The notes beneath the pieces were generated by a model. That model did no database searches and had not been told where the DNA came from. It was given only the letters and a program-made list of their open reading frames with translations. The translations under genes and the position numbers were made by a program. From the UHGV virus genome UHGV-0023958: a stretch of 64,000 nucleotides of DNA; one strand, given 5' to 3'. Below are positions 2 to 44,773 of this stretch, in pieces. The DNA is from a virus. Position 1 is the first letter of the stretch. Every line of letters starts with the position of its first letter.

Positions 2-3000
2 GATGTTAAGGGATAGATTGTTCATTTACCAGTTACAAAAGATAGAAACCTAAATCAATATACAGCTGGCATGGTGTATAATATATCTACTGGAAGCTGG
101 GAAGAAAATATGGCTTTAATACAAGCTCTTACAGATGTATATGAGGGTAAGGGCGATAGATCAAACATCAAAATACCAGGAAGATACACCGGTGGCGTTA
201 CAAGTGGAACATATACAGATGTAACTGGGGCAGAAAAAACCGTAACATATTGGAATGGTAAAACTTTAAAGAAATGGCTAAAAAGCGATCAAAAAGATAT
301 GGAAAGTATGATCTCTTCATTATCTTTAGAGGATAAAAATCATTTTTTGAGACTATTGTTTGGGCAAAGTAATGGAAATTTTTGGTATACAATTGGTTCT
401 AGTAATGAGTTGAGAAAAAAATATAAATCTCAATATGACTAGATTGTTGCGAATAAAGAAAATAGCAATTACTATCTTCAAGACATAGGTGGTTCTTGGG
501 AAATCGGAGAAGATGGTAGTTGGAAATTTATTCCAAGAGAAAGTACTTCCGAAAGTAGATAGAAAGCATCTAAAAATATGTATAATAAAGATTGGTGGGA
601 AATCGCATAGGAATAGGATGAAAATAGACTAATTAATGATTTTTCTAATAACAGAAAAGATATAGATGAACAAACGGCGGCACAAATGGTCCCAGTTGCC
701 TCTAGAAGATTAGCAAGAATTATAGATTATTCTAATAAAGTAGATAGAATCACTCAAGAAATAATTAAAAGAAATCCAGAGTTAGAAGGTAGGGATGTTG
801 AAGAGGTTTCAAAAGAATTTTTAAAAGCTACAAATCCAAAAAATTTAGATAGATATCTAAGATCAAAGGAGCTTTTAGCAGCTTTCCCGAAGGAAGGAAC
901 AGATCAAGAAAAATATGAATTTGCATATCAAGGTTTAAGAGAAGATTCTAATGAGGAATCCAAACTTAAAAATATGCTTTATATAATTGAACAGGCTGGA
1001 TTATTAGACAAAGTAAAGTCCGGATACATGGATTGGGAAAAATATTTTTTTAAACAACAAAAATCGATTCCTTATTCTGTTTTAACATCAATGGCTACGG
1101 GTAAAATGCTTGGATACGAAGAAGATGAGTTGAGGCCAGAGTACGCGGAACAGAGGTCTTAGATAAAAACATTAACATAGGTTGATGAAAAATATATCTC
1201 AGATATGAAGAATCAGATGGGAGATGAAATATTATCTACAGCAGAAGACGAGATTGATTTTTTTAAAAGAAAGATATCCGAACTCGGTAAACAAAAAGGA
1301 TTGGATGAAGACGCAATAAATTCTGCATTGGAGAAAGTCGATTATGCTGTTGAAGATACCGCTGCATAGAGTATTGAAGATGTTTAGAAATATATAAATA
1401 GCCAATATGATGCAAGTGAAATTGAATCTTTTGAAGCTTTACATGAAGCAATGGGTGTCGGGGAATTTTCTGGAGAAGAAACACCATTACAAGAAGAATT
1501 TGAAAATAGTCAAGATAATCTTTATCAACAAATTGATGAAAAACAAAAAGAATTCGAGGCAATTTATAGAACGCAAGTATAGGCATTTAATGATTATATT
1601 ATGTATATGGCCAAAGATATGCTTTCTCTTGCCAATGAAATAAATGAAAATAGCAAAAAAAATAATAAAAAAAATCAATAGAAGAAGAAACAGACAATTG
1701 ATCAAGAATCTAAAAAAATTGAAGAATCTTCTAAAGAAATTGCACAAAATATTGTTAATAATGCTATAGATAACGCAGTCAAACAAACAGAAGAGGTTGC
1801 GCAAATATATACATCGTCAGCAAAAATTTCCAAAGAAGAAAATAAACCTGTTTTAAAAGACGGTGTTTATGTTTGGTCTAGAACTGGTAGAAGATTATCC
1901 GCAAAACAACTTTCTTCACGTGGTTTACAAAATAATCCTCCTTCTGGAAATATTCAATATTTTGGTGGCCCAATTCCAGTTTATCCAGCTGGTCAAGGTG
2001 GAGAATTAGATCCAAATAAAACATATAGAGAAACTGGTATAACGGTTGATGCCGAAAATAAGATAGTAAGTAGAACTTTAAAAGAAGTTCAAAAGAGACA
2101 AGACGGTGGCAAGCGTGGATCGTCTCAGCTTGATGTAATTAAACAGATCAAAGAAGACACTGGAAAAATTGTAAATATAATGGAATAGCAACCACCCGTT
2201 TCTGGTGGTGGTATGCCACCAGAGATTCCAACTACCGGTGGCGGAACTTCTGGCGGTAGTAAGAAAGGCAAATCTAAAGAAGATAAGCAAAAAGAAAAAG
2301 AAGATAAACAGGTTGAAGCTCAAAGAAAAAAAAATAATCAAGAATACGCAAAAGCCTTAAAGACAGAATACGATTATCAATTGAAGATTGATGATGCAAG
2401 ACGTAAGTCCAATATAACTTCCGGTAGAGAAAGAAAGTCTTAGCAAGAATTTATAAAAGTTGCACAATAGCAATTGAAAATAGCACAAGCAACAACTCAA
2501 GAAAGAAGAAAGGCTGTTACAGATAAAGATGCTGCGCTTATTGAATCTGGCTTACAAGGTCAGTTTTCTGTTAAACGTGCCGCAATATATACAAAAGATA
2601 AAGGTGCACGTAATATATTCGACCTTATGGGCGATGATATCAAGAGAGCTTTTTAGAGAATTACAGATTTTGGTGTGGCTGCTCGTATTTTGAATAAAGT
2701 TCAAAAAGAAATTGCTAATGTATATCAAAATATATTGAAGCTCAATGAAGCAATGACAGACATTCGTATTGTAACTGGTGCGAGTGTTGATGAAGCGAAT
2801 TCTTTAATGACTAGTTATAATAAACTCGCAAAAGAACTTGGCACAACAACAACCGAGGTTGCAAAGTCTGCAAGCGAATGGATGCGTCAAGGCTATACTG
2901 CAAGCGAATCTGTTAATTTGATTACTTCTTCTGTAAAACTTGCTCGTCTAGGCTTCATGGATATGAGTTCCGCGACAACATCGTTGACGGCTGTTCTTAA

Positions 3001-6000
3001 AGGTTTCAATCTTCAAGCTACTGAATCATCTAAAATTGTTGATAAGCTTACAAAACTCGATGCCGAATACGCGACAACAGCTGGCGATATCGCTAACGCA
3101 TTATCAAGAACGGCTGCTGCCGCAAAAGCAGCCAATCTCGATCTCGATCAAACTGCAGCAATGCTTACTACAATTATTGATATTACGCAGCAAGATGCTG
3201 GTAGCGTTGGTAATGCTTTAAAGACGATTTTGTCAAGATATGGAAATGTTAAAGCTGGCGTATTTGCTGGAATGGCAGAAGATGGGGAAGACGCATCTGA
3301 AAGCATAAACGATGTTGAAAAGGTGCTGAATGCGATTGGTATTCAGATCCGTTCGACTTCAACAGAAATGCGTGGTTTTGATGAAGTCCTCGATGATTTG
3401 GCTGAAAAATGGGATAATTTAAACGATGTCGAACAAAACGCCGTTGCAACTGCTATGGCTGGTGTAAGACAGCGCAACCAATTTTTAGCCTTGATGCAAA
3501 ACTACAACCAATATAAAGAAAGTTTGGAATCTTCTCGTACATCTTCTGGTACGGCAGATGAAAAATATGCTGCGGTTATGGATAGCATTGCTACTTCTAT
3601 GCAAAAAATACAAACTGCGTGGGAAAGTTTTACACAAAAACTTCAAGCGAGTGGATTTGTAAAAACATTCTTTAAGGCAATTGCAGGTGTTGTTGAAAAT
3701 ATTGATAAGATACTTCCAAATATTGTGGCGATGTTGACGGCTATTGCTGGAAAACACCTTCCAACTATAGGAATGAAGGTCCAAGGTTTATTTGGCGGTG
3801 GAAGTCGTATGGGGAAAGGTGTCAGAGCTGCTTTCGGACGAAGTGGATCATTTGAACAAGAAAGTTTAAGAGAACTTGCAGAATACAAAAAAGGACTTGG
3901 CTATAAAGATGAGGAACTTTCTGAAGCAGAAAGAAAAATCCTTGGTTCTGGGCACCAAGAAAATACCGCAGATGATAAAACAGCATCCAATACCGATTAG
4001 ATTAAATCTGATGTTTCTACTATAAAGGCTTATTTACAAAACAAAAAAGCAGGAGGTGCTACCACTCCGAATACTGGAGATGATACAAATCAAAACGTAG
4101 AGGCTGGTGGCAGTCAAAAAGTTTCTAATAAAAAAGGTAAAGCTAAAGGAACAAAATTTTTAAAAAAAGCTAGAATAGCCTCTGGTGTTACGACTGGAAT
4201 AGCATCGGGACTTTCTTCTGGTATGACTGCTAATTATGGTGATTTTACAAGCACTGCTGACAAAATATTTACTGGTGCTGCTTCTGGTATATTTTCTGGT
4301 GTTGGAACCGCTCTTGCTGGTCCTATTGGGGGTATCATAGGCACGGCGTTTGGATAGAAAATCGGTGAGATATTTTATGGACAATTTCACAAAGAAGAAA
4401 TTGCTCGTCGCAAACGTGTTGATGAAGCTAAGAAGCAACTTGAAGCTACTCAAAAGGTAGAATCTGCAATTACCTCCGCCGAAGAATTAATAAGCAAAGA
4501 TAGAAGCGAATGGGGTTCGGAAGAGTATAAGCAAGAAAAAGAAGTAATTGACTAGATGCGACTTGGATTACAAACTTCAAGCACATTAGCAGAAAACTTT
4601 GCAAAACTTTCTGGTAAGCCTACCGATGTTTCTGATTGGCTTCTTAAGTTATCTTCTGATTTAACATAGCTTGATAAAAGCGTTATTGCAAATTATCGTG
4701 CGGCTCAAATTTTGACGGAAGCGCAAGAAACATATAAAGCTGGCGAAGAAGATCGTGCGGCGTTATATGATAAGCTTGGAAGTGCAGAAGCTTCCATGCT
4801 TAATCAAATTCAGAACATAGATTCTGCTTCTTCGGAGTATCTTGAAAAACATAAAGAATATGAGAGCAAATACGGGAGGACAGTTGAATCTGGTATTGCT
4901 TCAATGCAACAAGCGCAAATGCAATTAGATGCGTTTACTGATGCGTTGCACGAAGGATATATGCAAGCCGCATTTTATTCTTCTGGGGTTTCTCAAATGT
5001 CTTCGACGGATATCGCCGGGGCGAGTCTCGATAGAGTTGTTGCCGAGGTCGCTCGTGCTTGGGCGGCAAGTGATGCTACTGCTTTAGTGTTTGCTAATGG
5101 AATGCTTTTGGATAGTGCAAGAAAATAGATTGTAGCGTATTTAAAAACACAATCTGATTTTACGTCATTAACAAAATCTCCTGGTGGAAGTTTCCGAGAA
5201 ATATTAGATGCTAGAGATGATATTGGAGATTATTTAAATAAAACTGGTAATGATTATACCAAATTAAAAAATATAGTCAATCAACAAGATTTTAAGAAAA
5301 TAAGAGAATTTTTTGGATATGATTCTAAGGATACAACAAAAGATTCTTATATTAAAGATATAATTGATAAAATCAATAAAGCTGATCCAACAAATATTGA
5401 ATTGATTGCGCATGGATTAAACATGACTGTTGAAGAAGCAGAAAAACTCAAAGATGTTATAGGAACAATAACCCTTTCTGATATTTTAAACGGAGCGAAC
5501 AAACTTTTAGATAAGTTTGACGAATTAAATACGATTCTTGGAGAGATTAGCGATAATGATATTTTATCTCCAGATACAATGAATAAAATAGTCAAGAATT
5601 TTCCAAATTTATTAAAAGGAACCGATGAAAGTGGAAATGTTACTATATCAAGAGATAACATTATAAGAAATCTTACAAAGTAGATTACAGATCCAAATGG
5701 TACTTACGCAACTGGATATATTGGTAAAGTGGCAACAGGAGCAAAAACCGAATCTAAATACTGGGATTTATTTAAAGATGTTGCTGATTAGTATTTTACC
5801 GGAGATACGCTTAAATAGATAATGAATTATAGCAATTTCGAAGGTGCGGAATCTATAATGATGAGACCGGAGAATAAGTAGGCATTGTAGAGATTTGGTG
5901 AAATAGTTGCGACTTCAACAGGGATTATTGATTAGCAAGAAAGAGCTAGAAATACATTAATTGAAGCGGAAAACAAATCTTTGGAAAAACAAATCGATAA

Positions 6001-7525
6001 TTTACAATCCATTAAAGATTCAATTGGAGATATCAATAAACAAAGAGAAAAAGAGCTTAATTTAATAAAGGCTCGCGATGCGCTTGAAAATGCGAAAAAA
6101 GAAAAGAAGCTTGTTTATCGTGCCGGTATTGGATTTGTTGCTACGTCAGACTCTTCTGCAATATAGGAGGCTCAAAAGAAAGTTGATGATTTGCAAAATC
6201 AACAAACTCAAGAAGATTTACAATATCAAATAGATTAGCTTAATCAACAAAAAGCAATATTAGAGGCGATTAAGAATGATCCCAATATGGAGAGCTTAAA
6301 AAATACTGCGGAAATTATAAAAGATGAATTGATGTAGAAAACGCCAGGTGGTATTCTTGGGCTATTAAAAAATTTAGATCCAGAAACTTTTTCTGATAAT
6401 GTTCGAGACGGCATTGTGAAAAGTATTACAGAAAAAACGCTAGCCGTTGGGCAAGATACATACAGAAACATAAAGTTTTCGTTAGACACTTTGTTATAGG
6501 ATTATAAAGATTTTTATGATACAAAAAATTATGAAGGAAGTGGACAATCTGTTCAATCTATTTTAGAAGATCCGTCAAATATTTATTTTTCTCGCGTTTC
6601 AAATTCAATAAAAGAAAAACAAAGTGCTATAGAAAGTAAGAAAAAAGAGCTAGATAATTTAAAAGAGAAGTATTTTTCTGGCGATAATAAATCGTTATTA
6701 GGAAGTTATGGCGGAGCAATTGAAAATATACAAAATTATTATAAAGAAAAATATGGAACAGATGATTATTAGGATGTGTCAAAGTTAAAATTTAACAAAG
6801 AGGGTATTTTGTTAGATTTAGAAAATGCTTCTGGTGATTATCATGAAAATTATTTTACAATGGTCAAATACACAAATGAGGCGGTATCCGATGATTCTTT
6901 TACCGATAATAAACATCGAAAATATAAAAAATCACCCGGTAAATCTTGGGAAAGCTTGGGTAAATCATGGAACGATATTGTAGAAAATGATTTGTTATAG
7001 CCGGGAGATTTCGTTTTAGTAGATTTAAAAGGAAATAAACTCGCCTATGTTGGTGTTGATAAAAAATTATATTGGGTACAAACTAAAAAGCCGAAAGATT
7101 AGAGTTATGGTGGTTATGGCGATGTTAATGACACAACAAAAGGAAATAACCCCGATATAGATTATTCTAATATGCGAGCCAAAGGTGATTATAATTATCA
7201 AGGTGGCAACGTTCTCATTAACGAACTTGGTACAGAAGCTATTGTAACACCACAGGGTACGCTTACATCACTTCCTTCTCATTCTGGTATTGTTCCTGCC
7301 GATCTCACAAAGAATTTGTTTGCTCTTGGCGAGATTGCTCCAAATCTTATTGCGACTCTTCGTAATCAGATGCCAAATGTTTCTAAATCGAATTCTACTA
7401 GCAATGATAATTCTACGAATATCGGAACTGTTTATGCAACATTTAATGCAGATAGCGGATTTGATATGAACAGATTTATGATCGACTTGCGCTCTGCCGC
7501 TGGCAACACAAGACACAACAACTAA
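2..7525 (+). CDS. Tail tape measure protein, 5' partial, read with about 30 in-frame TAG codons as sense; ends at TAA 7523-7525.
   Basis: Track ORFs 71-442, 686-1162, 2213-2443, 2474-2656, 2675-4000, 4712-5128, 5402-5683, 5981-6166, 6776-7000 and 7172-7525 are all in frame 2. Codon-by-codon walks of 3998-4712 and 5126-5402 found only TAG between them, no TAA or TGA. The 2675-4000 segment has a TP901-type core (GASVDEANSLMTSYNKLAKELG...LKGFNLQ). Confidence 0.75.
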
Positions 7526-9875: not shown

Positions 9876-10202
9876 CATTTAAACCTCATATCCCGCTGGT
9901 GAAAAAGACGCTACGGTGCATCTGGTGTGATAACTGGCGGAACCGCCACTTTAAGTGATGGTACGAGTGTACCGATAACTATAACTACCGCCGAAGCATA
10001 ATTCGGCATAAACACTTTATCTCCCTTTCCCCCAATTTGAGAGGGGAGGAATAATAAATAAAATTTAGGTTTTATTATACAGCCCAGTTTTTGTTCGGTT
10101 TTCTGTAAAAAAATCGAACACCAATAAGTTTGGGTGTGGCGAGTGAGATACCTCCCGCCCGCCACAACTCAATATAAAAAATAAAAGAGGAGGCAAGAGA
10201 TT

Positions 10203-13200
10203 ATGGCAGTTTTTAAACCGACAAATTGTTCGCCGTATTTAACATCTTTTGATATTACATATTTGAATGAAGGACCAATTTATTTTCAATGTAAAATAGA
10301 TACGTCAAACACAAATATTGACGGATATGCTATAACTGTTTATGATAGTGATAATCATAAAATTTTTCCGCATAATGGAAACGCAGTCGATAATATATCA
10401 TATATCAAAGATCTTCATTATGATACAACGAAGATTGGATCGATTATTTCTGATGATGGAATTTCTGATTTAAACACTGGTTTAAACGGAAGTTATTTAA
10501 AAATTCCTTTTGTTGTAAACAATGGTTAGAATAGTTATCTAACAAACACAACGAGAAAAAATGTTGTTGTGTATAATAAAAAAACAGACGGAAGTTATGA
10601 AATAAAAGATAATTCTGGAAATATCATTAAATTATATAACGGAAATCAGTATAAATGGACAATAACTTTATATTAGCTCGGACAAGACGCTGTTGATAAT
10701 AAGAAATCTAGGCCAGAAGAAATTAAATATTATGATATGACAGTGGCTTCTGGCAAAATTCTTGGATCTACCAATGAAAGAATCCAAAGCTATCCGAGCG
10801 ATCAAATTTATAATGATTACTTTTTACAATTATATAGTGCTCCAGTTGTTAATGTTGGTCCTGATTTTTAGATTACAAAAATTACAGGAGATGTAAAACA
10901 AGTTGGAACGAGGGTTAGAATTAAAGATTACGATTCGTATCTCGGACACATGTATTTACAAACTGGACAAGATGGTTTGTCTGAGAAAAATTTAGATATA
11001 TCAAATGTTTTCCAAGTTTTTAAAATGAGTAATAACCCAGATGATTTGGGCACAAAAGACAAAGTTGATTTTTGCATTAGTCAAAAATACTTTGTGCCAA
11101 AGTATTTCCAAGAATCTAAATCTGATTCATCGGCAGCATATTTATCTCAAACATTTGTTATTGCAAACGTCACTGGTTCAAGTGCCTCTGAAACTTTGGA
11201 AAAAGTGAAAGATGTTTATAATAAGCCGTTTTTTGAAAACACTGAAACTTTGTATGGTTTACCTTCATCTAATCAATATTACTCTAAAATTTTTAGTGGT
11301 TATGACGGAGACAATTCTCCCCCGGTTATATTTGGTTAGTCAAGAGTTTTATTGAATACGGAAAATAATAACAACGAATTAGATGAAAGTAGTGGGGCCG
11401 TAACTGGTACTAAGGATTATGGACCGAATGGAGGTAGTTCTAAGTTTAACGGTATATGGATTCCAAAAACACCAACTGTTGAAAAGATTGCAGAACATTA
11501 GAATGAAGGTAAATACACTGGAACAGATTATAAAATAACAATTCAATGGTATCGTTCTTCTGATGCTGATACATGGGGAGAAATCACAAACAAAGTCGTT
11601 TTAGATACCAACAATTTCAACAGTGATTATGATTCGTTCGCAGGTCAAAATCTTCAAGCATATACTTCTGAGCAAGAAGGAGAGCAAGTTTCAACCGGTA
11701 CTATTAATGATACGCTTATAAAATTTAACAACGAAGAACCTGTTGAAATTTATTCAAATAATTCTTACGAACATAACTATGGATTTATTTATAAAAACAA
11801 CATGGACATAACTGCATGGTTAGCGTCTATAACTGGTGAGACAACGCATGTACTAACTTATACATACATTTGTAAAAACACTTGGAGGGTAACTGGAAAG
11901 CCAAAGTGGCGCGAAGGCGATAATTTTAATGATTGGATTGGAAATCCTATTTATTTTATAGAGAAAGATAATAATATATTTCAAGACAAGCATCAATATC
12001 AAATTTTAGCATATCGTAATCCAAGTAACTCTTACTTACAAGCGGAGGTTAAGTTTAATTTAAATGAACAATATACTACTTATTATAGTGGGAATTATGG
12101 TTTAGATTGTTTTAATCCACCAGAGGAGTGGGAGAAGTGTGAAATACGCGTTGTTTGGAAAAATGATGCCGCAACAGATAAAAACTTAGATCTCCCAGAA
12201 GTTAATGATACAATTCAGTTTTTTATATATGATATAACAACTGGAATTATTAATTTTATTTCTCCGTCTACAGCCGTGTCTGTTGGAGATAAAATATTCA
12301 ATAAAGATAATTCTTCTTCGAATGTTGTGTTGTTAAATAAAACTGTTTGGGCGATTGGACAAGAGCAAGATGTTTCTACATATAAATATAAAAACAATGA
12401 AGGTCGGTTGGTAGACTATAATTATTATCCGATTTTAAACTTCAAAACAAACGATTTATATTCAATTAAAACATTCTTCCGTTCGAGCAGCGAAAATCAA
12501 TTTAGTTTATATGAACGTCCAACTGTCGATTTAGAATTATACGGCGTTTCAGGCGGTGCAAAGATAGAAATTAATGCTGCTGATAAAACATGCAAAACCT
12601 ATGAGAGAAGTATTTTTGCATAGGCTATTTATAATCAAACCAATTTGGTTCAGTGGAGAAATTATCAATGGTTTCTTTACGATGTTCCAAATATTTACGA
12701 AAACGCCGATGCGTATAAAACAGCAGCTGGATCTGCTTTGACAAAATATTTAAATCCGAATGATCTTATTTTGCAATCAGAAGTTGGTTATGATAAAGAG
12801 ATAAAATATACGTTTTATGGTTTGGCAGAAGAACACCATTGGTATATTATATCACTTGTTTTGACAGATCAATACGGAACAATTATTACAAAGAAAATTG
12901 CTGTTTATACTGATTTTACAGTGGAATTAGAACAAGATAAAGATTGGGTTAATTATGGTCTTCGGTGTGATTTAACCGGCGTCGATATGTGGTTTGAAGA
13001 TAAATACGGTTATATATATCCGAATTTGGGTGATAGAAATTATTTGATAGAAACCAACAACAAATATGCAAACAATCCAAATGGCGTTACGTATTCTGAT
13101 AGTGTTATGAATATATCTGATAACTCAGAAGGTGTTTTATATGATAGCGTATATAGCAATGACGGATTAAGTTCTTGGAATTCCCCTTCTAAACAAAATT

Positions 13201-14339
13201 TAACTTTTGATCAGAATAAAGGTATCGAATTTACGACGAGGGTTACAATAGACAGTTATCAATACTCGGCAGAATTTCTAAACGTTGTTATTAATACAGA
13301 TGGCGGAAACACAAAGAACTTGGTTTTGAAACCAGAAGATTTATATATAAGTTCTAATGATTGGCCAGAAGGTTATAAAGTTGGTTTCCCGAATTATGAG
13401 TGCTATAAGATTGGTAATTATGCTATCGGGGAAAATCCGAACGTATATGTTTATGGGAATGTAACAACCGATTTGTTCCCTAATTCTGATTCTTATAATT
13501 CTTGTATTAAATATAATAATTACTATATATCTTATATTCCTTCGAACGTAGTTCCCCTTGGAGCTAATAAACCTTCTATAAATATTCCAAATTCTTGGTA
13601 TTTTATCAATTATGATGAAGAAAATAGTGTTAAAGATATAATAAGTGATAAACCGATAAAGATAAATAAGATGATTTATGCTTTAGATGATCCCGATGGG
13701 CTATAGAACAAAGATGTATTTTATAATTTGCCAATATTTATAAGAAACGATTTATCTTTAAGCGGGAAAACAATAGAAAATTTACCTGATGGAACTAAGG
13801 TTTATAGTCTTTGGATGGATAAAAACGATGAGATAATTATACCAACAATAGTTGCTATAAATGAATCTGCTAATACTTTTTACTATTGTTATAGAAAAGT
13901 CAATAATCATCAAGAGGATATATCAGATAATATCTGGGAAGATACAAAAGAAAACGGAGAAGATAATATTTGGGAAGACGAAATTACAGTAGAAGATACT
14001 CAATCTGACCATTTAAAAAATAAAGATGGCTCGTTGAATACGATTAGAAATCGTTTGTATGGCAAAGTTTTATATTTTTATGTTCAGTGGAGCGGAAAAG
14101 AAAACGACGATATCACATACGGCATTGTTGGAAATGTATCACAAAGAGTAATAGATGTTGATTCTGAATTGTCGTTGACTTCTGTTAATCCAGTTGAGAA
14201 CAGGGTAATTACAACTGCTTTAAATTCAAAATTAGATACAACAACGTTATCTGATTAGAACACATTTGGTATATTTAAATGTTATACAGATAAATTTGGA
14301 ATATTAACTTTTGTTACTGGGGAGGGTGAAAATGGCTAA
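10203..14339 (+). CDS. Large tail / host-specificity protein of about 1378 codons with at least 8 in-frame TAG codons.
   Basis: ORFs 10203-10529, 10950-11339, 11802-12623, 12645-13706 and 13728-14258 are all in frame 0 with only TAG between them. The TAG at 14256 is followed in frame by TAA at 14337-14339, overlapping the next ATG as ATGGCTAA. Confidence 0.55.
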
Positions 14340-15927: not shown

Positions 15928-15937
15928 AATATAAAAA

Positions 15938-17200: not shown

Positions 17201-17210
17201 GGAGGGACGT

Positions 17211-19004: not shown

Positions 19005-19033
19005 TTGACTTTGGGGTGATAATATGTTATAAT
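19005..19033 (+). promoter_or_regulatory. Sigma70-type consensus promoter: TTGACT, 17-bp spacer, TATAAT.
   Basis: Exact hexamers and spacer; upstream of dUTPase. Confidence 0.55.
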
Positions 19034-19098
19034 ATACTCCAAAGCCAAGGGTGAAAGTCTTTGGTTTAGAAAGTTTTAAGAAAAGAGGTCAGTTTTAT

Positions 19099-21706: not shown

Positions 21707-21711
21707 TAAAA

Positions 21712-23138: not shown

Positions 23139-23159
23139 TTTTAAACAAGGAGGTTGTTT

Positions 23160-24365
23160 ATGGAAAACGTATTGATTGAATTTAAAAATAAAGCTAAAAA
23201 GCAAAACATTATTAAGGCAGGGTTGTGTTCTGTAGCAATCTCCTTGTTATTTAATATTCCGTTTTTGATAGCTTTTTGGATTATGGATTATAAATATAAA
23301 TTTATAATTTGCGCTGGAATTTTTATTGTCGGAATCTCCGTTTTGTTTCCAGTTTTATATTTCAAAAAGTTTAAATATACCGAAATTCAATTAGCAAAAA
23401 TAATTGACGATCTTGGTTTAGAAGAACGTGTTTTGACAATGATTGAATTAAAAGATAATAATTCTTTTATTGCAAAGAAGCAAAAAGAAGATACGTTGAA
23501 CGTCCTGAAAACCGTAGAGGCGAATGATTTAAAAGGAAAATATAAAAAACAATCATTTCTTTCGATATTTTCAACTGCATTGGCATCTTTGGTAATTGCT
23601 TTATCTTTAATGTTTCCAAATATTAGAGAAACTATTATCGCTCGCGGAGAACCAAAATATACAATTGAAGTGTCTGCAGAAGGTCTCGGTTTTGTGATTG
23701 ATTATTCTAAATATGAAAATCAATCTTTGATAAATGCCGTTTCTAAAAAACAAGAACAAGATGAAATCAATAAAATTAACAATAAAGAAATAGTTGAATT
23801 AAAACAATTCCCGACTGTATTTTCAAATAGAATTTCCGTAAATTATAGATGTTTCGAAGATATTGATGCAACTATGGTTTTAGACGGTGCCAACTTTGCA
23901 GATGTTTCTTATAGAATACAATCCGATGAAACACATATTTTAATGGCACTTCCTTATAAAGGATATGTGTTTGTTGGTTGGTCAGACGGTTGTGCTTCTC
24001 CGTTCAGAGAAATTGACAATTATTCCACCGACTTGATTGCATTGTTCGATGAAGTAAGTTCCGTAGGTGAAGACTTACCAGATAAACAAAAAGAACCGGG
24101 AGACAAAGATGGATCTGATGGTGGTGAGTCTGATGGAATTGGACCCGAAGGAAATGGAACCGGTAAAACAAACAATGATAATAGTTGGGGCGATGGAGCG
24201 AAAGGTTCGCCAGCAAATCAAGTAATTAACGGTGAAACTTATTATGGTGATATTTTTAATCAAAGCTATCAAGAGGCTGTTGAAAGAATAAAGAATGATA
24301 CAAATTTAACAGATGCACAAAAGAAAGCTATAACTGATTACTTTGAATCAATAAGAAAAAATTAA
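23160..24365 (+). CDS. Membrane protein with two or three N-terminal TM helices and a Gly/Asp-rich C-terminal region.
   Basis: RBS aaggagg then ATG 23160; hydrophobic segments. Confidence 0.4.
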   Translation: MENVLIEFKNKAKKQNIIKAGLCSVAISLLFNIPFLIAFWIMDYKYKFIICAGIFIVGISVLFPVLYFKKFKYTEIQLAKIIDDLGLEERVLTMIELKDNNSFIAKKQKEDTLNVLKTVEANDLKGKYKKQSFLSIFSTALASLVIALSLMFPNIRETIIARGEPKYTIEVSAEGLGFVIDYSKYENQSLINAVSKKQEQDEINKINNKEIVELKQFPTVFSNRISVNYRCFEDIDATMVLDGANFADVSYRIQSDETHILMALPYKGYVFVGWSDGCASPFREIDNYSTDLIALFDEVSSVGEDLPDKQKEPGDKDGSDGGESDGIGPEGNGTGKTNNDNSWGDGAKGSPANQVINGETYYGDIFNQSYQEAVERIKNDTNLTDAQKKAITDYFESIRKN

Positions 24366-24378
24366 AGGAGTATTATTT

Positions 24379-25188
24379 ATGATACCTAATAAAACAAAAG
24401 CATCTGAATATAGGGTGCGGACATTAGATAGAAATGATTTAAATGAGAAAGGAACGATTTATATTGGTTAGGGCGGTACTTCTACTATTGATAAAGTTGA
24501 AAATATTTCCAATGTAGCGGCAATTAGTAAGCCAGATGATGATTTAAACAAATCTGGTTATTATGCTTTAACGCTTGGAGGAAATGCAAATCAAGATGGA
24601 ATTTGGGGCAGATTTTTACATGAGGTAGATTGCCAAATAACACCAACTTTATTTCAATTAAACGAAGGAGCGCCATCTCTTCATAATCCTTATAAATATG
24701 TAATTCGCGGTGGGTATAAGTCGTTAAATATTAAAAAAAGTATATTTGATTCAACACTTACATATATAATGGATTATAATTCAAATTTATCATCTTTTTC
24801 TTCTGTTGATTAGAAAATATTTGCAAAATTATCTATGAGGGGATTTGTAGAATATGATACTCCGTTTGAAGTATATTCTTCTTTTGTTGCCTCTCAGAAG
24901 ACTGGAAGTTCTTGGGAGTTATATCCTTTGAATTTTTCACCGATTAATATTACAAAATTAAACGATAATTATATGCGAAATTTCCAAAGCATTGTTTTTT
25001 GTTCAAATGATACACCGTGGCAAGAAACTGCGGATGGTTTTCAATTAAACCTTCATGCAATCGGTATGGGAAATACATTAGAAGAGCAAAAATTATATTA
25101 TTAGAAAAATGGCACTGGTGAAATTCTAACTGCTAATCTATCAAATATTTCATAGATTAGAGTAACTCAAATGTCTATTATTTTTTAA
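24379..25188 (+). CDS. Hypothetical protein needing TAG decoding (four in-frame TAG codons), sitting inside the otherwise standard-code early region.
   Basis: RBS aaaggag then ATG 24379. Frame 1 is open through TAGs at 24469, 24811, 25102 and 25153 to TAA at 25186-25188, and contains track ORF 24835-25104. Confidence 0.5.
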
Positions 25189-25200
25189 AATAAATTTTAA

Positions 25201-25237
25201 GAGGAGTGTCAAAATTACTTGACATTCCTCTTTTTTT
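25201..25237 (+). terminator. Intrinsic terminator: 12-bp stem gaggagtgtcaa/ttgacattcctc, loop aattac, then TTTTTTT.
   Basis: Seen in the sequence; one G-U pair. Confidence 0.6.
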
Positions 25238-25247
25238 ATGGTAAAAT
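25219..25247 (+). promoter_or_regulatory. Promoter TTGACA-N17-TAAAAT whose -35 lies in the 3' arm of the preceding terminator.
   Basis: Hexamers and 17-bp spacer. Confidence 0.5.
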
Positions 25248-25277
25248 ATCTTTGTAATAAAACACAAGGAGAATGTT

Positions 25278-25541
25278 ATGACAACAAAGCCAGTAATCAA
25301 AGAAAACTTTATTGAATTTCTTAAAACTAATTATCCAGAATGTTTTGAAAGCGGAACACCGATAGTAGAAAACGCTTTAGAAGCTTTGATTATATTAAAA
25401 AAGAGAGAGTATACAAAACAATTTTGTGCGTCGCTTTCAAAAGATGTTATGCAAGTTAAAACGAATAAGAAATTCAAAGATCAGTTAAAAGATATTGAAT
25501 ATAAAATTCGTAAAAATCATATTGATTTAGGAGAGAATTAA
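25278..25541 (+). CDS. Hypothetical protein.
   Basis: RBS aaggag; ORF track. Confidence 0.4.
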   Translation: MTTKPVIKENFIEFLKTNYPECFESGTPIVENALEALIILKKREYTKQFCASLSKDVMQVKTNKKFKDQLKDIEYKIRKNHIDLGEN

Positions 25542-25864
25542 TGGAACAATTAAAAGAAAGACCTATATTTATAACCGCTAAACATGTTAAAAATACGTTG
25601 AATGGAAAGACTTACGGGGAGATTAGAGAGATTCTGGAAATCGATCCAGGAGAACATGAATTACTACCGAACGGAGAGAAAATTCCAGATGACGTAGTTT
25701 GTATTGTTAACAAATCTGAAGAATGGCCTTGCACTGGAGGTCTTGTAAACGTAGAAATTCGTTTCACCGTGGGAAACAAAGAATACGGGCAAATGCTTAT
25801 GGCCAAACTTGGGCGTGTAACCTGTAGATTCACCCGTCCGCCTTTGGAAGCTTTAGAAGGTTAA
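25541..25864 (+). CDS. Hypothetical protein.
   Basis: ORF track; ATGA overlap with the upstream gene. Confidence 0.4.
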   Translation: MEQLKERPIFITAKHVKNTLNGKTYGEIREILEIDPGEHELLPNGEKIPDDVVCIVNKSEEWPCTGGLVNVEIRFTVGNKEYGQMLMAKLGRVTCRFTRPPLEALEG

Positions 25865-25869
25865 AAATT

Positions 25870-26667
25870 ATGTCATTTCGTGAATTTTATAATGAAGATT
25901 GTTTTATAAATATGAAAGGGTTTAAAGATAAATCAATAAACCTTATTTTAACTTCTCCGTTTTATAATACGAATAAAAAAGCAGGGAAGAAAAATACGCT
26001 TGAAAACACAGAAATCAAAAAAGGAACATATTCTTATATTAGATATGACGAACACGTCGATAATATGACGGACGAAGAATATGAAGATTTTACAAAAAGA
26101 TTATTTAATGAATTTAATAGGATTGTTGTAAACAACGGTGTTGTTCTTTATAATCTTTCTTATAGCAACGATAATCCAGCAAATTTGTTTTCATTAGTTA
26201 ATATGATTTGCGAAGAAACGAATTGGATGATTGCCGATGTTATTGTTTGGAAAAAGAAAAGTGCTTTGCCGAATAATTGCTCTCCAAATCGCCTAACTCG
26301 TATCTTTGAGTTTATATTTGTTTTTTGCAGAAAAGGCGAAGAAAAAACTTTTTATGTAAATAAAAGGGTGATTTCATTACGCGCAACAGGGCAGAAATCG
26401 TATGAAAATATCTTTAATTTTGTCGAAGCGAAGAACAATGACGGTCCGTGTCCGTTGAATAAAGCGACGTATTCAACTGATTTGTGCAAACAGTTACTTC
26501 GAATTTATGCAAATCCAGAAGACAAAGATTTTGTTGTTTACGATCCTTTTATGGGAACAGGGACAACTTTGGTTGCATGCAAGGAAATGGATATAAATTG
26601 TTTTGGTTGTGAAATTTCTAAAAAACAATGCGAGTGGACGCAAAATCGCTTGACAAATCAAAACTAA
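25870..26667 (+). CDS. DNA methyltransferase, N6-adenine / N4-cytosine beta class.
   Basis: Motif IV TSPFY and motif I VYDPFMGTGTT. Confidence 0.65.
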   Translation: MSFREFYNEDCFINMKGFKDKSINLILTSPFYNTNKKAGKKNTLENTEIKKGTYSYIRYDEHVDNMTDEEYEDFTKRLFNEFNRIVVNNGVVLYNLSYSNDNPANLFSLVNMICEETNWMIADVIVWKKKSALPNNCSPNRLTRIFEFIFVFCRKGEEKTFYVNKRVISLRATGQKSYENIFNFVEAKNNDGPCPLNKATYSTDLCKQLLRIYANPEDKDFVVYDPFMGTGTTLVACKEMDINCFGCEISKKQCEWTQNRLTNQN

Positions 26668-26678
26668 TGTGATATAAT
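26650..26678 (+). promoter_or_regulatory. Promoter TTGACA-N17-TGnTATAAT overlapping the methyltransferase stop, upstream of the suppressor tRNA.
   Basis: Exact consensus. Confidence 0.5.
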
Positions 26679-26699
26679 ATATATGTTATAAACGCGTGA

Positions 26700-26719
26700 T
26701 GTCAAATCTAGATTTGACA
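26700..26719 (+). promoter_or_regulatory. 20-bp perfect palindrome tgtcaaatct/agatttgaca whose 3' half supplies a second TTGACA -35 just upstream of the tRNA.
   Basis: Seen in the sequence. Confidence 0.35.
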
Positions 26720-26748
26720 AAACGTGATTATATAAAATTACTGTACAG

Positions 26749-26823
26749 TGGGGAATAGCATAACGGTAGTGCGGTGCTCTCTAAAAGCACTCTGTGTCGG
26801 TTCGAGCCCGACTTCCCCCGCCA
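26749..26823 (+). tRNA. Amber suppressor tRNA, anticodon CUA, with Gln-like features U1, G10 and G73.
   Basis: Cloverleaf: acceptor tggggaa/ttccccc; D-stem gcat/gtgc; anticodon stem gtgct/agcac with loop cTCTAaa; T-arm gtcgg-ttcgagc-ccgac; encoded CCA. Confidence 0.75.
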
Positions 26824-26856
26824 GTAACGATTAAAAATAAAATGGAGGTAATGCTT

Positions 26857-27231
26857 ATGTCGTAGATACGTGAATCTTGTTATTTTTATACTTAGAAGGC
26901 AGCATCTTATGTCGGGAGTAGAGATTATGAAATCAAATACGATCCCGGCGTTTTCGTTGTATTTTCTGAAGATTTTTATCCCTTGGACGATGACAAATAC
27001 CAATCGTGTTTATGCAGGAGTTTGAATTTGGCGAACGAATATAACACAAATGTTTCTTATTCAGACAAGGAAGATTTGGCCAAAGCAATTTATTTCGATT
27101 TATATCAGAAACCAGATGAAACCATTTTTGTCTGCGAAAATGATGCAATTGCCGATGTGGCAAACAGGTATTTTGGCGAAGATAGTATTATAAACATTAA
27201 AAAGGTAATTGAGGAATTTGAAGAAAAATGA
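26857..27231 (+). CDS. Small protein whose only in-frame ATG is followed by TAG at codons 3 and 13; lies immediately downstream of the suppressor tRNA.
   Basis: GGAGG RBS 9 nt upstream of ATG 26857; same frame as track ORF 26983-27231. Confidence 0.45.
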
Positions 27232-27701
27232 ACAGAGAGTTTGTGAGAAATTTTAACAGAATCAATAAGAGCAATTATTCCAAACAAGATATTCAAACGA
27301 TGATTGCACTGACGAATATTATGCAGGGTAAATTGTCGAAAGATATGGAACTCGGTTTTCCGAGTTTAAAACATTATGATAATCCAGAGTTATTTCCGAA
27401 TGGAATGTTGGTCAAATTGAATTATGAAAAAATTAAACAACGGAATCAAAATGATTTGACAGAAGATTATAAAAAGTTTGTTGAAGAAAACAAAGATAAT
27501 GAATTTCATCTAATCAGAGATGACGAAGATACGGGGTTAGTTGCACTAGAAGAAGATAAAAGAAAAACCGTTCTCGATGGAAAAGAAGTTGATTGTCCAA
27601 AGTTCTTATTCGATATGCTTTCAGATTTGCTTGTAAAAGATAAAAATAATGATTGGGTACCAGCGTACGAGTTTGAAGGAAAATTTTTAGAAAAAAAATA
27701 A
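27228..27701 (+). CDS. Hypothetical protein.
   Basis: ORF track; ATGA overlap. Confidence 0.4.
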   Translation: MNREFVRNFNRINKSNYSKQDIQTMIALTNIMQGKLSKDMELGFPSLKHYDNPELFPNGMLVKLNYEKIKQRNQNDLTEDYKKFVEENKDNEFHLIRDDEDTGLVALEEDKRKTVLDGKEVDCPKFLFDMLSDLLVKDKNNDWVPAYEFEGKFLEKK

Positions 27702-27720
27702 GAAAAGCGATTAAAAACAT

Positions 27721-27749
27721 TTGACAAAAAGATTTTAAAGTGATATAAT
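27721..27749 (+). promoter_or_regulatory. Promoter TTGACA-N17-TGaTATAAT.
   Basis: Consensus hexamers and spacer. Confidence 0.5.
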
Positions 27750-27800
27750 AAAGAAAAAATGCAATCCGAAAGATTGCAAGATTATAAGGAGAAGAAATTT

Positions 27801-28880
27801 ATGGCAATGAATTTTACCTTTGTAGGTAAACTGAAAGCAGTCAAAGACAATGAGAAGTTTAAAGGTTATGAAGTAAGAACTTTTGAATCTGGTTGGGTGC
27901 AGACGAATTTGAAATTTAATGCGGTGAATGGAAACAATCGCCACATGTTTCAGATTAAAGCTGGTTATTGGGGTGATAAGGACGGTAATGTCAATGAGAG
28001 CAAGACCGTAATTTACGCACCAGTAACAAACGAAGAAACACACAAGACAACGAGAACCAAAATTGCTTATGTGAACAGGGAAGATGAAAGTGTTTTGAAG
28101 TCCGTTAGCAAGGGTGGTAAATATGTTCTTGATCTTCGTACGGATGAAAACCCAGCTGGTTATAAGGAATATATTTTCGAGAAAGATTTTATCGATGATG
28201 TTAAGAAACACATTCTCGAAAACACAAGAGTGTCAGATGTGAGATTCAGAGTTCTCGGCGAGGTAGAAATCACTTATTCAGAGAGCAAAGGAAACTTTTA
28301 TAAGACATTTATTCCGAAGAAAATTTATCTTGCAAAGGACACCGAAGAAGATAAAATGCAGATCAACGCAAAGCTTATTTATGGAAGAACCAGCCTCGAA
28401 GATGTTGCGGGAACTGATAATTTTGTGCTGAACGCATACTCCAGATATTATGATAATTCTTATAGAGGCGATAATTGCAAAGGATATTGCTTCTGCCCTG
28501 TAGAAGTAAATATTGTTCCAAAGAATGAAAAGCAGAAAGATTTGTTCGTTAAGAGATTCCGTGAATTCGAAACCGATTCCAGCGAATACAGGGAAATCGG
28601 TATGGTTATTGATGTAATTGACGGACAGGAAATTGTGCGCGTTACAGAAGATATGCTCGGCGAAGAAGCGAAAGAAAATATTGAGTATGGTTTCTCGACT
28701 TTGGAAGAAGAGTTGAAGAAAGCTGGTGGAACGACTTATGGACCTCGTATTACAGAGTACAGATTCAATAACTGGGGTTCTCCGAGCGAAGACACTGTTT
28801 ATCAGGATGAAGATCTTCTTCCGCCACATCACGATGACGAAGAGAAATCTGATGACATTTTCGAAGACGATGAAATTTAA
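27801..28880 (+). CDS. Hypothetical protein with an acidic C-terminal tail (DDIFEDDEI); possibly an SSB-like partner-binding protein.
   Basis: RBS aaggag; acidic tail; position in the replication module. Confidence 0.35.
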   Translation: MAMNFTFVGKLKAVKDNEKFKGYEVRTFESGWVQTNLKFNAVNGNNRHMFQIKAGYWGDKDGNVNESKTVIYAPVTNEETHKTTRTKIAYVNREDESVLKSVSKGGKYVLDLRTDENPAGYKEYIFEKDFIDDVKKHILENTRVSDVRFRVLGEVEITYSESKGNFYKTFIPKKIYLAKDTEEDKMQINAKLIYGRTSLEDVAGTDNFVLNAYSRYYDNSYRGDNCKGYCFCPVEVNIVPKNEKQKDLFVKRFREFETDSSEYREIGMVIDVIDGQEIVRVTEDMLGEEAKENIEYGFSTLEEELKKAGGTTYGPRITEYRFNNWGSPSEDTVYQDEDLLPPHHDDEEKSDDIFEDDEI

Positions 28881-28896
28881 GTGGAGATAAAAAATA

Positions 28897-30066
28897 ATGG
28901 CATTTGTTAAACCCCAAATTAATACGATTAAAGCTGATATTGCAAATATTTCGATTTATCTTCGTTCGACGAAGAAATTCGGTAAAACCACACTTTTCAG
29001 AGATGTAATTCTCGAAAAGTATGGAGATCCATCTTACGGTCTTCTTGTTGGTTGCGGCGCAGAAGTTGGTTATAAACTTCTCGACAATTTGAACTGTGTT
29101 CAGGTTACGAGTTGGGAAGATTTGGTAGAACTTAAAAAGTGGCTTATCGAAACCAACGGCGTAGAACATCATATTAAAATTGTCGCGTTCGATACTGGCG
29201 ATGAACTTGTTTTGCTTGCAGATAAGAAAACGATTGCAATTAGCAATAAGGAAAACCCTCAGAAACCTTGCCGTTCAATTAAGGCGGCAATGGGTGGTTA
29301 TACCGCTGGCGAAAAGTATTCCGCGAACAATTTGATTAAGCCTTATCTTTCCGATTTGCAACAGCACGGTTTTGCAACGTGGGTAATTGCGCACACGAAG
29401 TTGAAGACGATTAAAGATAAAGGTGCGCTTGAAGAAGATGGATATCAGCAGCTGACTTCCAATCTTTCCGCTGATTATGAAGCTGCGTTCGGTGATGTAT
29501 TTGACGTATGTCTTACTGGCGTTATCGACAGAATGCTCGAAACAAAGCAGGTTGGCAATGATAAGAAGAATGTTGTTACCGATACGGAACGTAGACTTTA
29601 TTTCCGTGGAACTCCAATGATCGATGCTGGCGGTAGATTTGCAGCTGGTACGGTTCCCGAATATATGGTGTTCGACAAAGATAATATGGCAGCAGACTTT
29701 ATTAAGATTGTTGAAGGTGGTATGGAAAAGTCAAAACTTTCTGGTTTTAAAGTAAAGGCAAAAGTAGAAGACAAACCAGTTGTTGAGGCAAAACCAGTTG
29801 TTAAACCCGTTGTGAACACGGCGGCTGAAGTTGAAGAAGATGAACCGCCTTTTGATGCCGATAGTTCGGCGAGTGAAGATGAAGAAGTTTATTCGCTGCC
29901 AGAAAGACTTGCGGCGGTTCGCGAAGCGTTTAAAAATGCTGGTAAAGAATTGAAAGATCAAGTTAAGGCAATTCTTATCGCGAATGGCAACGGTCAGGAA
30001 AAAGCAAAACTTGATAATCTTCCTGTTGAAGAGCTTGCAAAAGTAGAGGCCATCCTTGGTCTGTAA
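28897..30066 (+). CDS. P-loop ATPase (FGKTT; Walker B IVAFDTGDE), possibly RecA/Sak4-family; acidic C-terminus.
   Basis: The motifs listed; function is inferred. Confidence 0.35.
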   Translation: MAFVKPQINTIKADIANISIYLRSTKKFGKTTLFRDVILEKYGDPSYGLLVGCGAEVGYKLLDNLNCVQVTSWEDLVELKKWLIETNGVEHHIKIVAFDTGDELVLLADKKTIAISNKENPQKPCRSIKAAMGGYTAGEKYSANNLIKPYLSDLQQHGFATWVIAHTKLKTIKDKGALEEDGYQQLTSNLSADYEAAFGDVFDVCLTGVIDRMLETKQVGNDKKNVVTDTERRLYFRGTPMIDAGGRFAAGTVPEYMVFDKDNMAADFIKIVEGGMEKSKLSGFKVKAKVEDKPVVEAKPVVKPVVNTAAEVEEDEPPFDADSSASEDEEVYSLPERLAAVREAFKNAGKELKDQVKAILIANGNGQEKAKLDNLPVEELAKVEAILGL

Positions 30067-44047: not shown

Positions 44048-44773
44048 ATGGCAGCTAAAAAAAATTCTACAGAAACAATAGTTAAGAAAATCAATGTACC
44101 AGAAAATATCAAAGATTATATCTTTTTTAAAAGACTTCCGTTCAAGCTTGACGAAGAGCAGTGGAAATTTATAGAAGCGGTTTGGAATAAAAACAACATT
44201 GGTGTGTTTTGCAATGCTTGCGCTGGTTCAAGTAAAACAACGCTTGCAACAGCAATGGCACTGCTTATGACAAACGAGTTTAAATTATATGAATCTATTT
44301 ATTATATCGTTTCTCCTTGTCAAGAGTCAACATTGGGTTATTTGCCTGGGAATGTAGATGATAAAATTTCTTACTATATTGATCCAGTAATCGATGCAAT
44401 CACAACTTGCGGATATGATCCAGAAAAACTTATTGTTTCTGAAAATAATATGGAAAATGTAAAAAATGGAACGGCAACAATCAATGCTATTCCGTCAACG
44501 TTTCTTCGAGGAAGAAATTTCCAGAATGCGTTTGTTATTATTGATGAAATTCAAAATGCGACAACGCACGAAATCAAAAAGATTTTGAGTCGTTGCCACG
44601 ACAATTGCAAGATTCTTTGTCTTGGTCATACTGGACAGATCGATTTGAAATTCCCACAGGATTCTGGTTTCTTTAAATATATTGAAGCCGCGAAAAAGCA
44701 AGATTTTATAGAAGTCGTTGAACTTACCAAAGATTATCGAGGTAAATTCTCGCAATGGGCAGATAGTATCTAA
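44048..44773 (+). CDS. PhoH-like ATPase.
   Basis: P-loop AGSSKTT; LGHTGQIDL. Confidence 0.5.
   Translation: MAAKKNSTETIVKKINVPENIKDYIFFKRLPFKLDEEQWKFIEAVWNKNNIGVFCNACAGSSKTTLATAMALLMTNEFKLYESIYYIVSPCQESTLGYLPGNVDDKISYYIDPVIDAITTCGYDPEKLIVSENNMENVKNGTATINAIPSTFLRGRNFQNAFVIIDEIQNATTHEIKKILSRCHDNCKILCLGHTGQIDLKFPQDSGFFKYIEAAKKQDFIEVVELTKDYRGKFSQWADSI

Follow-up and report, generated by a model that had tools for sequence, protein, structure and literature searches.

Sequence analysis of a putative amber suppressor tRNA-Gln, and of the TAG-containing gene that follows it, in a recoded phage genome

The DNA analysed in this work is a stretch of 64,000 nucleotides (nt) from the virus genome UHGV-0023958, referred to throughout as the window. 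It carries a transfer RNA (tRNA) gene with the anticodon CUA, which is preceded by a consensus promoter and followed on the same strand by an open reading frame (ORF) with two in-frame TAG codons and by a further small gene (Table 1). An initial annotation, made from the sequence alone, had proposed a suppressor tRNA of Gln-like identity at this position and had seen in its juxtaposition with the ORF a built-in reporter, or a feed-forward gate on suppressor activity. Here, we report a computational analysis of the locus, of the TAG codons across the window and of related loci. The results point to a phage that reads TAG as glutamine, mostly in its tail genes, with the downstream ORF as one client of the tRNA among several.

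The tRNA(CUA) locus

The tRNA had been proposed to fold into a canonical cloverleaf, and a check with ARAGORN had been suggested. Run on the window, the program called a tRNA of 75 nt with the anticodon CTA at 26781-26783, and Rfam recovered the same gene (RF00005; 52.8 bits, gathering score 29, E = 4e-10). At the acceptor end, U1 faces C72, a mismatch flagged by Infernal, and is followed by G2-C71 and G3-C70, with G73 preceding the encoded CCA. The D arm has G10 and a loop of 7 nt containing G18G19, the anticodon stem of 5 base pairs closes the loop C-U-C-U-A-A-A with U35, the variable loop has 5 nt and the T arm is canonical. A suppressor tRNA lies in the syntenic position in every close relative. 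We compared six phage suppressors, three from the window lineage and three from a second lineage described below, and found compensatory changes in 13 of the 21 stem pairs. Position 1:72 was never a Watson-Crick pair (U.C in four, G.U in two), and G73-CCA was present in all six. The suppressor of one second-lineage locus (L054), which is 72% identical to that of the window, has three of its six paired acceptor positions changed and retains U1.C72.

The glutaminyl-tRNA synthetase (GlnRS) of Escherichia coli requires an openable first pair and G73, and for this reason the conserved 1:72 mismatch looks selected. The identity set reportedly established for that enzyme by Jahn, Rogers and Soll in 1991 and by Hayase in 1992 comprises a weak or openable 1:72 pair, G2-C71, G3-C70, G10, G73 and U35; the window tRNA matches it, with U1.C72 at the first pair, and has A36 instead of G36, which is unavoidable in an amber suppressor.

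Searches for related sequences or structures around the tRNA were negative. A megablast search of 24300-29000 against deposited phages gave no match, a distant blastn search with the tRNA as query gave only a trivial 40-nt match, and apart from the tRNA itself there was no Rfam match at E <= 1 across 26000-27600, neither a theta ribozyme nor another structured RNA beside the tRNA. Rfam likewise gave no theta-ribozyme match at E <= 0.1 at the loci L013, L036 and L054, although the presence of a theta-specific model in Rfam 15 is unverified.

The consensus promoter that had been noted before the tRNA was confirmed in full. It consists of TTGACA (26650-26655), a 17-nt spacer, TG (26670-26671) and TATAAT (26673-26678), overlaps the final codons of a DNA methyltransferase gene and is, by these elements, a predicted promoter of the sigma-70/SigA class. 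Perfect TTGACA-N17-TATAAT sites occur four times in the window (26650, 27721, 32282 and 42099) against 0.12 expected by chance. All four are on the + strand, carry a TG-extended -10 element (TGTGrTATAAT in three of them) and lie in the TAG-free region. About nine near-perfect promoters (one mismatch at most) lie on the + strand in intergenic gaps from 19005 to 60684; no perfect or near-perfect promoter, by the same measure, was found on the + strand of the tail module. The tRNA promoter therefore belongs to the class that drives the TAG-free replication genes, which suggests that the tRNA would be made early.

The 63-nt leader of the tRNA contains a 20-base-pair palindrome with a second TTGACA inside it, as initially described, but 29 nt separate it from the tRNA, so the two do not abut. 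It occurs once in the window. Its centre varies among relatives and its arms are partly broken at two loci (L007 and L040), with one compensatory change, which indicates weak constraint, and the second TTGACA has no usable -10 partner. With a single copy, no -10 partner and partial conservation, a role as operator or second promoter was not adopted; the palindrome is possibly a leader hairpin or an operator.

The 3' end of the tRNA and the ATG at 26857 are separated by 33 AT-rich nt without a terminator. The two TAGs at codons 3 and 13 of a 124-codon ORF can be read directly from the sequence as annotated, and so can the GGAGG ribosome-binding site and the start at 26857. This start is not, however, the only in-frame ATG, since 26842 and 26851 share its frame; of the three, 26857 alone is well spaced from GGAGG, and conservation is lacking at 26851. 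In a comparison of 12 relatives, 38 third positions vary within codons 43-115 compared to 5-6 at positions 1 and 2, a coding signature. Further upstream, a block encoding VFVVFSEDFYP (codons 31-41) is conserved with mostly synonymous changes. Homologues in databases have been called over their full length, with Q as residues 3 and 13, and wherever the underlying DNA was read (the 12 loci, L040, L041 and L058-L060) both codons are TAG without exception. No relative has an alternative in-frame ATG, GTG or TTG from codon 13 to 43, or a TAA or TGA in the frame. Because one relative (L002) has lost the downstream TTG at 26983, because coding sequence is conserved upstream of it and because the first beta-strand of the modelled protein falls between the two TAGs, we regard 26857-27231 as a real gene whose product is predicted to be made only by read-through of both TAGs. 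The gene that overlaps its TGA is probably the last of the tRNA operon, and the next perfect promoter (27721-27749) lies just past it.

A relative of 48% identity offers a separate observation on this slot. At L013 3965-4335, in a genome that apparently uses the standard code, a tRNA-Gln(UUG) takes the same place behind TTGACA-N17-TATACT, in the order promoter, tRNA-Gln(UUG), homologue of g27759 and Sak4-like gene. About 180 nt of GC-rich, visibly self-complementary sequence without an Rfam match follow that tRNA. Descent of the suppressor from a phage tRNA-Gln(UUG) cannot be claimed, as the L013 counterpart is just 53% identical to it, equal to unrelated tRNAs. A 'tRNA-Gln(ttg)' called by ARAGORN at 46148-46219 in the window (72 nt, beginning 4 nt past a tRNA-Tyr) falls below the Rfam gathering threshold, is probably a false call and was not used; on this count the window holds no ordinary tRNA-Gln.

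Usage and meaning of TAG in the window

A census of 66 + strand genes found at least 53 in-frame TAGs in eight genes, mostly tail genes (Table 1). The structural module (1-19000) has 47 in-frame TAGs in 6105 codons, the region 19000-24370 has none in 1743, and the 48 genes of 27200-64000, which include Sak4-like, DnaB, PolIII-alpha and RecD2 genes, have one in 10820. Every one of the 66 genes stops at TAA (51) or TGA (15), and none needs TAG as a stop. With TAG read as sense, long + strand frames appear, such as 2..7525 (2508 codons, 33 TAGs) and 10185..14339 (1385 codons, 8 TAGs), and one of the client genes within 9039..18902 matches phrog_1887 'tail protein'. The 269-residue client gene, in which three of the four TAGs are kept as TAG in all aligned relatives, closes an otherwise TAG-free operon (NrdD and others) that starts at the near-consensus promoter at 19005. 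It is thus predicted to be, beside the ORF behind the tRNA, a second early-region gene that needs the suppressor.

The amino acid inserted at TAG was approached through codon exchange with relatives from IMG/VR (94-148 kb) of 82-98% identity in the tail module. Where a window TAG aligned with another codon (91 cases), that codon was CAA in 28 and CAG in 20, and in the reverse direction 73 of the 127 window codons facing a TAG in the relatives were CAG or CAA. Counted by site, a glutamine codon occurred in some relative at 10 of 22 variable TAG sites against a background of 2.9% for other codons (binomial p = 2e-10). Of the variable sites with CAA, 18 of 62 showed TAG in relatives; for those with CAG the figure was 13 of 25, and for all other sites only 27 of 2680. 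The remaining exchanges of TAG (Lys, Ser, Tyr, Glu, Leu) involve single-step neighbours at 3-5 sites each. As CAA is two substitutions away from TAG, the pattern reflects synonymy and not mutational proximity. We conclude that TAG is a glutamine codon in this phage (code 15), as predicted from its genes and those of its relatives. The exchange, taken together with the identity elements, makes the tRNA a Gln suppressor, so that the initial proposal of Gln-like identity holds, the exchange being the more decisive of the two. The gene at 26749-26823 is best described, from its sequence, as a real, phage-encoded amber suppressor.

The share of CAG among CAA and CAG codons is 35% in the early genes (27200-64000) and 17% in the tail genes (1-19000), and TAG and CAG together make up 32% of the Gln-type codons of the latter. 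This suggests that TAG arose from CAG by a C-to-T change and may have replaced about half of the CAG codons of late genes. An A at position +4 is enriched after sense TAGs relative to all codons (p = 0.015) and not relative to CAA and CAG (p = 0.13), which is too weak to use. The sole in-frame TAG of the 48 replication and accessory genes (57688-57711) is ambiguous. It lies 8 codons ahead of the TAA of the gene 57292-57711, and could be a true stop under the host code that yields an 8-residue extension once the suppressor is active.

Table 1. Features of the tRNA locus and other genes of the window discussed in the text
Feature	Position	Strand	Remarks
Sigma-70/SigA-type promoter (predicted)	26650..26678	+	12/12 match plus TG; invariant in 12 relatives
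20-bp perfect palindrome TGTCAAATCTAGATTTGACA	26700..26719		In 63-nt tRNA leader
Amber suppressor tRNA-Gln(CUA) (predicted), CCA encoded	26749..26823	+	ARAGORN, Rfam
GGAGG ribosome-binding site	26844..26848	+	From sequence; 8 nt before ATG 26857; invariant in relatives
Gene for 124-residue miniature PIN-like protein	26857..27231	+	TAG 26863-26865 (codon 3) and 26893-26895 (codon 13); TGA 27229-27231
157-residue gene, no family match	27228..27701	+	ATG overlaps previous TGA (ATGA)
Tape-measure-like client gene	71..7525	+	32 in-frame TAGs past first ATG (33 in whole open frame)
Tail/baseplate client gene	9039-9875	+	1 in-frame TAG
Tail/baseplate client gene	10203-14339	+	8 in-frame TAGs
Tail/baseplate client gene	14332-15927	+	1 in-frame TAG
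Tail/baseplate client gene	15950-17200	+	2 in-frame TAGs
Tail/baseplate client gene	17211-18902	+	3 in-frame TAGs
Client gene, 269 residues, no assigned function	24379..25188	+	4 in-frame TAGs
Stand-alone PhoH ATPase gene	44048..44773	+	PF02562, E = 3e-32

The PIN-like protein and its pairing with the suppressor

A profile built from the family of the ORF retrieved 225 proteins; the more distant of these carry PF13638 (PIN_4, 'predicted ribonuclease YlaK') and were recovered by the profile at E = 1e-8 to 1e-9. Eight of 36 aligned family members match PIN_4 (best E = 2.5e-19); the window protein itself stays below the threshold and has no Pfam match. The N-terminal family motif YKFYD(T) aligns with residues 8-12 (CYFYT), between both TAGs, and the window protein also keeps the motifs LA.AI.YD, HPDETIFV and AN.YFGEDSI of the C-terminal part. 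A structure model of a protein 98% identical to it (P0001) shows a PIN-like alpha/beta/alpha fold with strand beta-1 at residues 7-11. The first catalytic Asp, that of FYD(T), is replaced by Thr12 and the second acidic region, (Q)ELE, is deleted; acidic residues remain in KEDLAKAI and CEND (the Asp of each), at positions that both vary in the sister group. The four conserved acidic residues of a PIN active site are thus not all present in the window protein, which we regard as PIN-like by modelled fold and by probable descent and do not predict to be an active nuclease.

Most relatives of the protein are fusions of PIN and PhoH of about 420 residues, of which about 60 were full-length among the family members. 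It shares the motifs of the PIN half and the PIN-like fold with PhoH2/YlaK, in which PIN is joined to a PhoH ATPase (PF13638; PMC5499597), but has 124 residues and no PhoH domain, apart from the Asp-to-Thr change and the deletion already mentioned. The phage has a separate PhoH gene (44048-44773), whose product is a possible partner of the PIN-like protein, given that the two domains are fused in most relatives. Just upstream of that gene, behind the perfect promoter at 42099, are genes for a ClpP-family protease and a thioredoxin-reductase-like flavoprotein (42461-44037).

Many of the metagenomic PIN-PhoH genes (YlaK/PhoH2-like, about 420 residues; loci L061-L125, including L065, L098 and L114) contain 1-14 in-frame TAGs themselves. 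At L056 2953-4269, a 'PIN_4' call (163 residues) and a 'PhoH' call (187 residues) in the same frame are parted only by a TAG and are probably one recoded gene. Annotation under the standard code fragments genomes of this kind, and several separate 'PIN_4' and 'PhoH' calls are probably single TAG-containing ORFs.

The pairing of a tRNA(CUA) with a short PIN-like gene was found again in a second TAG-recoded lineage (loci L036-L039, L053, L054 and L071), where the order is endolysin, tRNA(CUA), PIN-like gene, a gene of about 204 residues and tape measure (about 20 TAGs). The PIN-like protein of this lineage has 108-112 residues and up to about 62% local identity to the C-terminal part of the window protein (30-34% over the whole alignment). 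Its gene contains no TAG and begins 61-64 nt past its own tRNA(CUA), except at L053, where an inserted GIY-YIG endonuclease gene (L053 2265-2909), of the homing type, widens the gap to 775 nt. Sub-clades A (the window lineage) and B (the second lineage) comprise eight loci with short PIN-only genes, each of which has a tRNA(CUA) upstream on the same strand, while the flanks differ, with methyltransferase and replication genes in A and endolysin and tape measure in B. No tRNA was found next to the roughly 60 full-length PIN-PhoH genes or in five further subgroups with short PIN-only genes. Sub-clades A and B have VANRYFGEDSI in common, in place of the IANLYFGEDSI of the others, and are probably sisters; the adjacency may therefore have a single origin and have persisted through the rearrangement of both flanks. 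The gene at 27228 (g27228) and the 204-residue gene of the second lineage were considered as a shared third member and rejected, since they are not homologous; the conserved unit is the tRNA with the PIN-like gene only.

This recurrence is suggestive of a functional linkage, though far from proof. In a functional code-switch cassette, the PIN-like protein would act together with the tRNA, by processing its precursor or by binding or protecting it, or with PhoH on host RNA. The pair has indeed stayed together at all eight loci despite their different flanks, with one GIY-YIG insertion tolerated, and the modelled fold is shared with RNases whose substrates are tRNA and rRNA. Kienbeck et al. (bioRxiv 10.1101/2023.06.13.544163) have moreover described a self-cleaving RNA, the theta ribozyme, at the 3' end of suppressor tRNAs, in exactly this position in other recoded phages. 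These phages and the window lineage, all recoded gut Caudoviricetes, have in common a conserved element directly 3' of the suppressor tRNA(CUA), which in the window is a PIN-like gene and not an RNA. On the other hand, the related genes without an adjacent tRNA speak against a general link, the adjacency of the two sister groups may reflect a single origin followed by descent, and the state of the acidic positions, with Thr12 in place of the first catalytic Asp and the others variable or deleted, argues against nuclease activity. We consider such a cassette unlikely, if the best of the alternatives. By analogy it could be pictured, no less tentatively, as a protein counterpart of the theta ribozymes that also serves as a feed-forward timer for the switch to TAG as glutamine, since synthesis of the PIN-like protein itself would need the suppressor here. 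If functional, the pairing would bring a protein into the machinery of the code switch.

Competing readings, proposed sequence of events and known systems

Under the reporter or gate proposed initially, tRNA and ORF would together be a self-contained circuit whose two early TAGs mainly sense suppressor activity or act as a gate on it. In favour of this, neither TAG3 nor TAG13 varies among the relatives while the adjoining codons 14-30 change freely, codon 3 is the earliest TAG of any window gene, an A follows each of the two, as in the classic read-through context, and tRNA and ORF form one transcription unit. However, the same tRNA is needed for at least 51 further in-frame TAGs spread over seven other genes, and the gene in the corresponding pair of the second lineage has no TAG. 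The density of TAG in the ORF (2 in 124 codons) is typical of recoded genes, and the invariance of two codons is weak evidence among such close relatives, in which 9 of 31 aligned TAG sites are invariant overall. A delay of recoded-gene translation until the suppressor is made has already been proposed (Borges et al., bioRxiv 10.1101/2021.08.26.457843). It is plausible that translation of the ORF is delayed until the suppressor accumulates, as a general property of every recoded gene. A dedicated reporter or gate is therefore improbable, and was an over-interpretation in that the 50-odd other TAG codons had gone unnoticed, whereas the initial account of the anatomy was good.

Less probable still is a residue other than glutamine at TAG (pyrrolysine, Tyr, Lys or Trp), for which one could point to the 'tRNA-Pyl' printed by ARAGORN, to those variable TAG sites at which Tyr, Lys, Ser or Glu codons occur and to G73, which is common to several other identities. 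The program prints that label for any CTA anticodon, glutamine codons predominate in the exchanges and include the two-step CAA, and the tRNA lacks the long variable arm of bacterial tRNA-Tyr, tRNA-Ser and tRNA-Leu. A tRNA-Pyl has a 6-base-pair anticodon stem, a 3-nt variable loop and a small D loop without G18G19, in all of which the window tRNA differs, and goes with pylS and pylBCD genes, whereas no pyl genes were found among the window genes scanned. Equally remote is a start of the ORF at TTG 26983 under the standard code, with the upstream 126 nt as an untranslated leader, which would yield the 82-residue ORF predicted with translation table 11 and would suit the absence of third-position bias in codons 14-30. 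The codon is TTA in L002, which already refutes this start and on which the initial annotation's own caveat of translation from 26983 falls, no Shine-Dalgarno sequence precedes it in place of the strong GGAGG-N8-ATG at 26857, and the conserved block, the stop-free frame, the family motif and the first modelled strand all lie upstream of it.

Taken as a whole, the locus is best explained by a code-15 phage in which an early-made amber tRNA-Gln serves the late genes and in which the ORF is one client; we assign this reading a probability of roughly 0.85. In it, a phage of about 130-150 kb, probably with a Bacillota host, would read TAG as Gln in its late genes. The unmodified host RNA polymerase would transcribe the tRNA early, like the replication genes, and host RNase P and 3' nucleases would release it from a tRNA-mRNA co-transcript. 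It would be aminoacylated by the glutamine-charging system of the host, which fits the unpaired 1:72 position and the remaining identity elements (G2-C71, G3-C70, G10, G73 and U35). The suppressor would then compete with release factor 1, such that TAG genes are translated only once it has accumulated, and read-through would reach the tail genes and two early-region genes, including the PIN-like ORF. The latter, co-transcribed with the tRNA, would be one client whose translation is inherently delayed, and the tRNA would not exist for its sake.

The host assignment follows from the promoter type, the GGAGG sites and the nearest relatives of the PolIII-alpha protein, which are those of Clostridium phage c-st (43% identity), Clostridioides phages and Geobacillus E3; a Bacillota host is thus probable from sequence comparison. 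Several points weigh against this explanation. Many Bacillota are without GlnRS and use glutamyl-tRNA synthetase with an amidotransferase, a route that may or may not accept a CUA anticodon. Neither an exact copy of the tRNA nor a short PIN-like homologue was found in 185,579 species genomes. The early timing is read from the promoter class alone, and the rapid evolution of codons 14-30 of the ORF, which shows no bias towards third positions, indicates weak protein-level constraint there. The window covers 64 kb of a larger genome, the rest of which may encode additional suppressor tRNAs or release factors; no release factor or aminoacyl-tRNA synthetase gene was found among the window genes scanned.

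Other genes of the window also concern RNA or lie beside its core genes. A tRNA repair-like kit (51164-53279, 61117-61899 and 46057-47627) comprises an Rnl1-type RNA ligase (PF09511), a kinase of the AAA_33/KTI12 type that also carries an HD domain (polynucleotide kinase-like) and a Thg1-like enzyme of the tRNA 5' end (PF04446), and four Rfam-confirmed tRNAs (Tyr, Asn, Gly and Val) form a cluster. Kit and cluster suggest a defence against host anticodon nucleases. Homing-endonuclease-type genes stand beside core genes at three places (21712-22665, 33353-34456 and 59100-60329), where an HNH gene follows NrdD, a LAGLIDADG gene precedes PolIII-alpha and the third is of the RRXRR-HNH type.

The window is a clean example of recoding in an apparently Bacillota-infecting lineage without deposited relatives, and its anatomy is readable, with a class of perfect host-type promoters that includes that of the tRNA and a sharp boundary between TAG-free and TAG-using genes. 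We consider the assignment of the tRNA to an early promoter, the conserved 1:72 mismatch and, as a lead, the pairing of tRNA(CUA) with a miniature PIN gene to be worth keeping. The phage would offer a tractable test of the model in which the suppressor times the translation of late genes.

Among cellular tRNAs, the nearest parallel is supE (glnV44) of E. coli, an amber tRNA-Gln(CUA) that inserts Gln at UAG and derives by point mutation from a cellular tRNA whose first pair is U1-A72. The window tRNA likewise places CUA on a body of the tRNA-Gln type, with 5' UGGGG, a weak first pair, G2-C71, G3-C70, G10 and G73. It differs in its conserved U.C at 1:72 and is only about 61% identical to E. coli tRNA-Gln2 overall.

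Recoding of TAG to Gln with a suppressor tRNA is already known in phages, and the window lineage adds another case. Code-15 gut phages with suppressor tRNAs include crAss-like, Lak and Agate phages (bioRxiv 10.1101/2021.08.26.457843; Yutin et al., PMC7886860; Peters et al., PMC9523058), and Gln at TAG positions has been tested by proteomics in crAss-like phages (PMC9523058). In a published model, early genes in the standard code supply the molecules of the code switch (bioRxiv 10.1101/2021.08.26.457843). As in these phages, TAG in the window is concentrated in structural and late genes, the replication genes are compatible with the standard code, a phage tRNA(CUA) is present and TAG aligns with Gln. 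Unlike the crAss-like and Lak phages, whose hosts are Bacteroidota, the window uses canonical promoters of the sigma-70 type and GGAGG sites. No close relative of its lineage was found among 50,697 deposited phage records, and membership in the genus of phAss-1 is unsupported, as no DNA similarity to the window was found in the phage collection. In kind, phAss-1 (proposed Phassvirus; Babkin et al. 2023, PMC10607447) is nevertheless comparable. It is a gut phage of about 136 kb with TAG read as Gln in 28% of its ORFs, mostly virion genes, and it similarly has tRNA-Sup-CTA genes, no dedicated aminoacyl-tRNA synthetase and a predicted Clostridia-type host; it differs in having 36 tRNAs and three suppressor genes.

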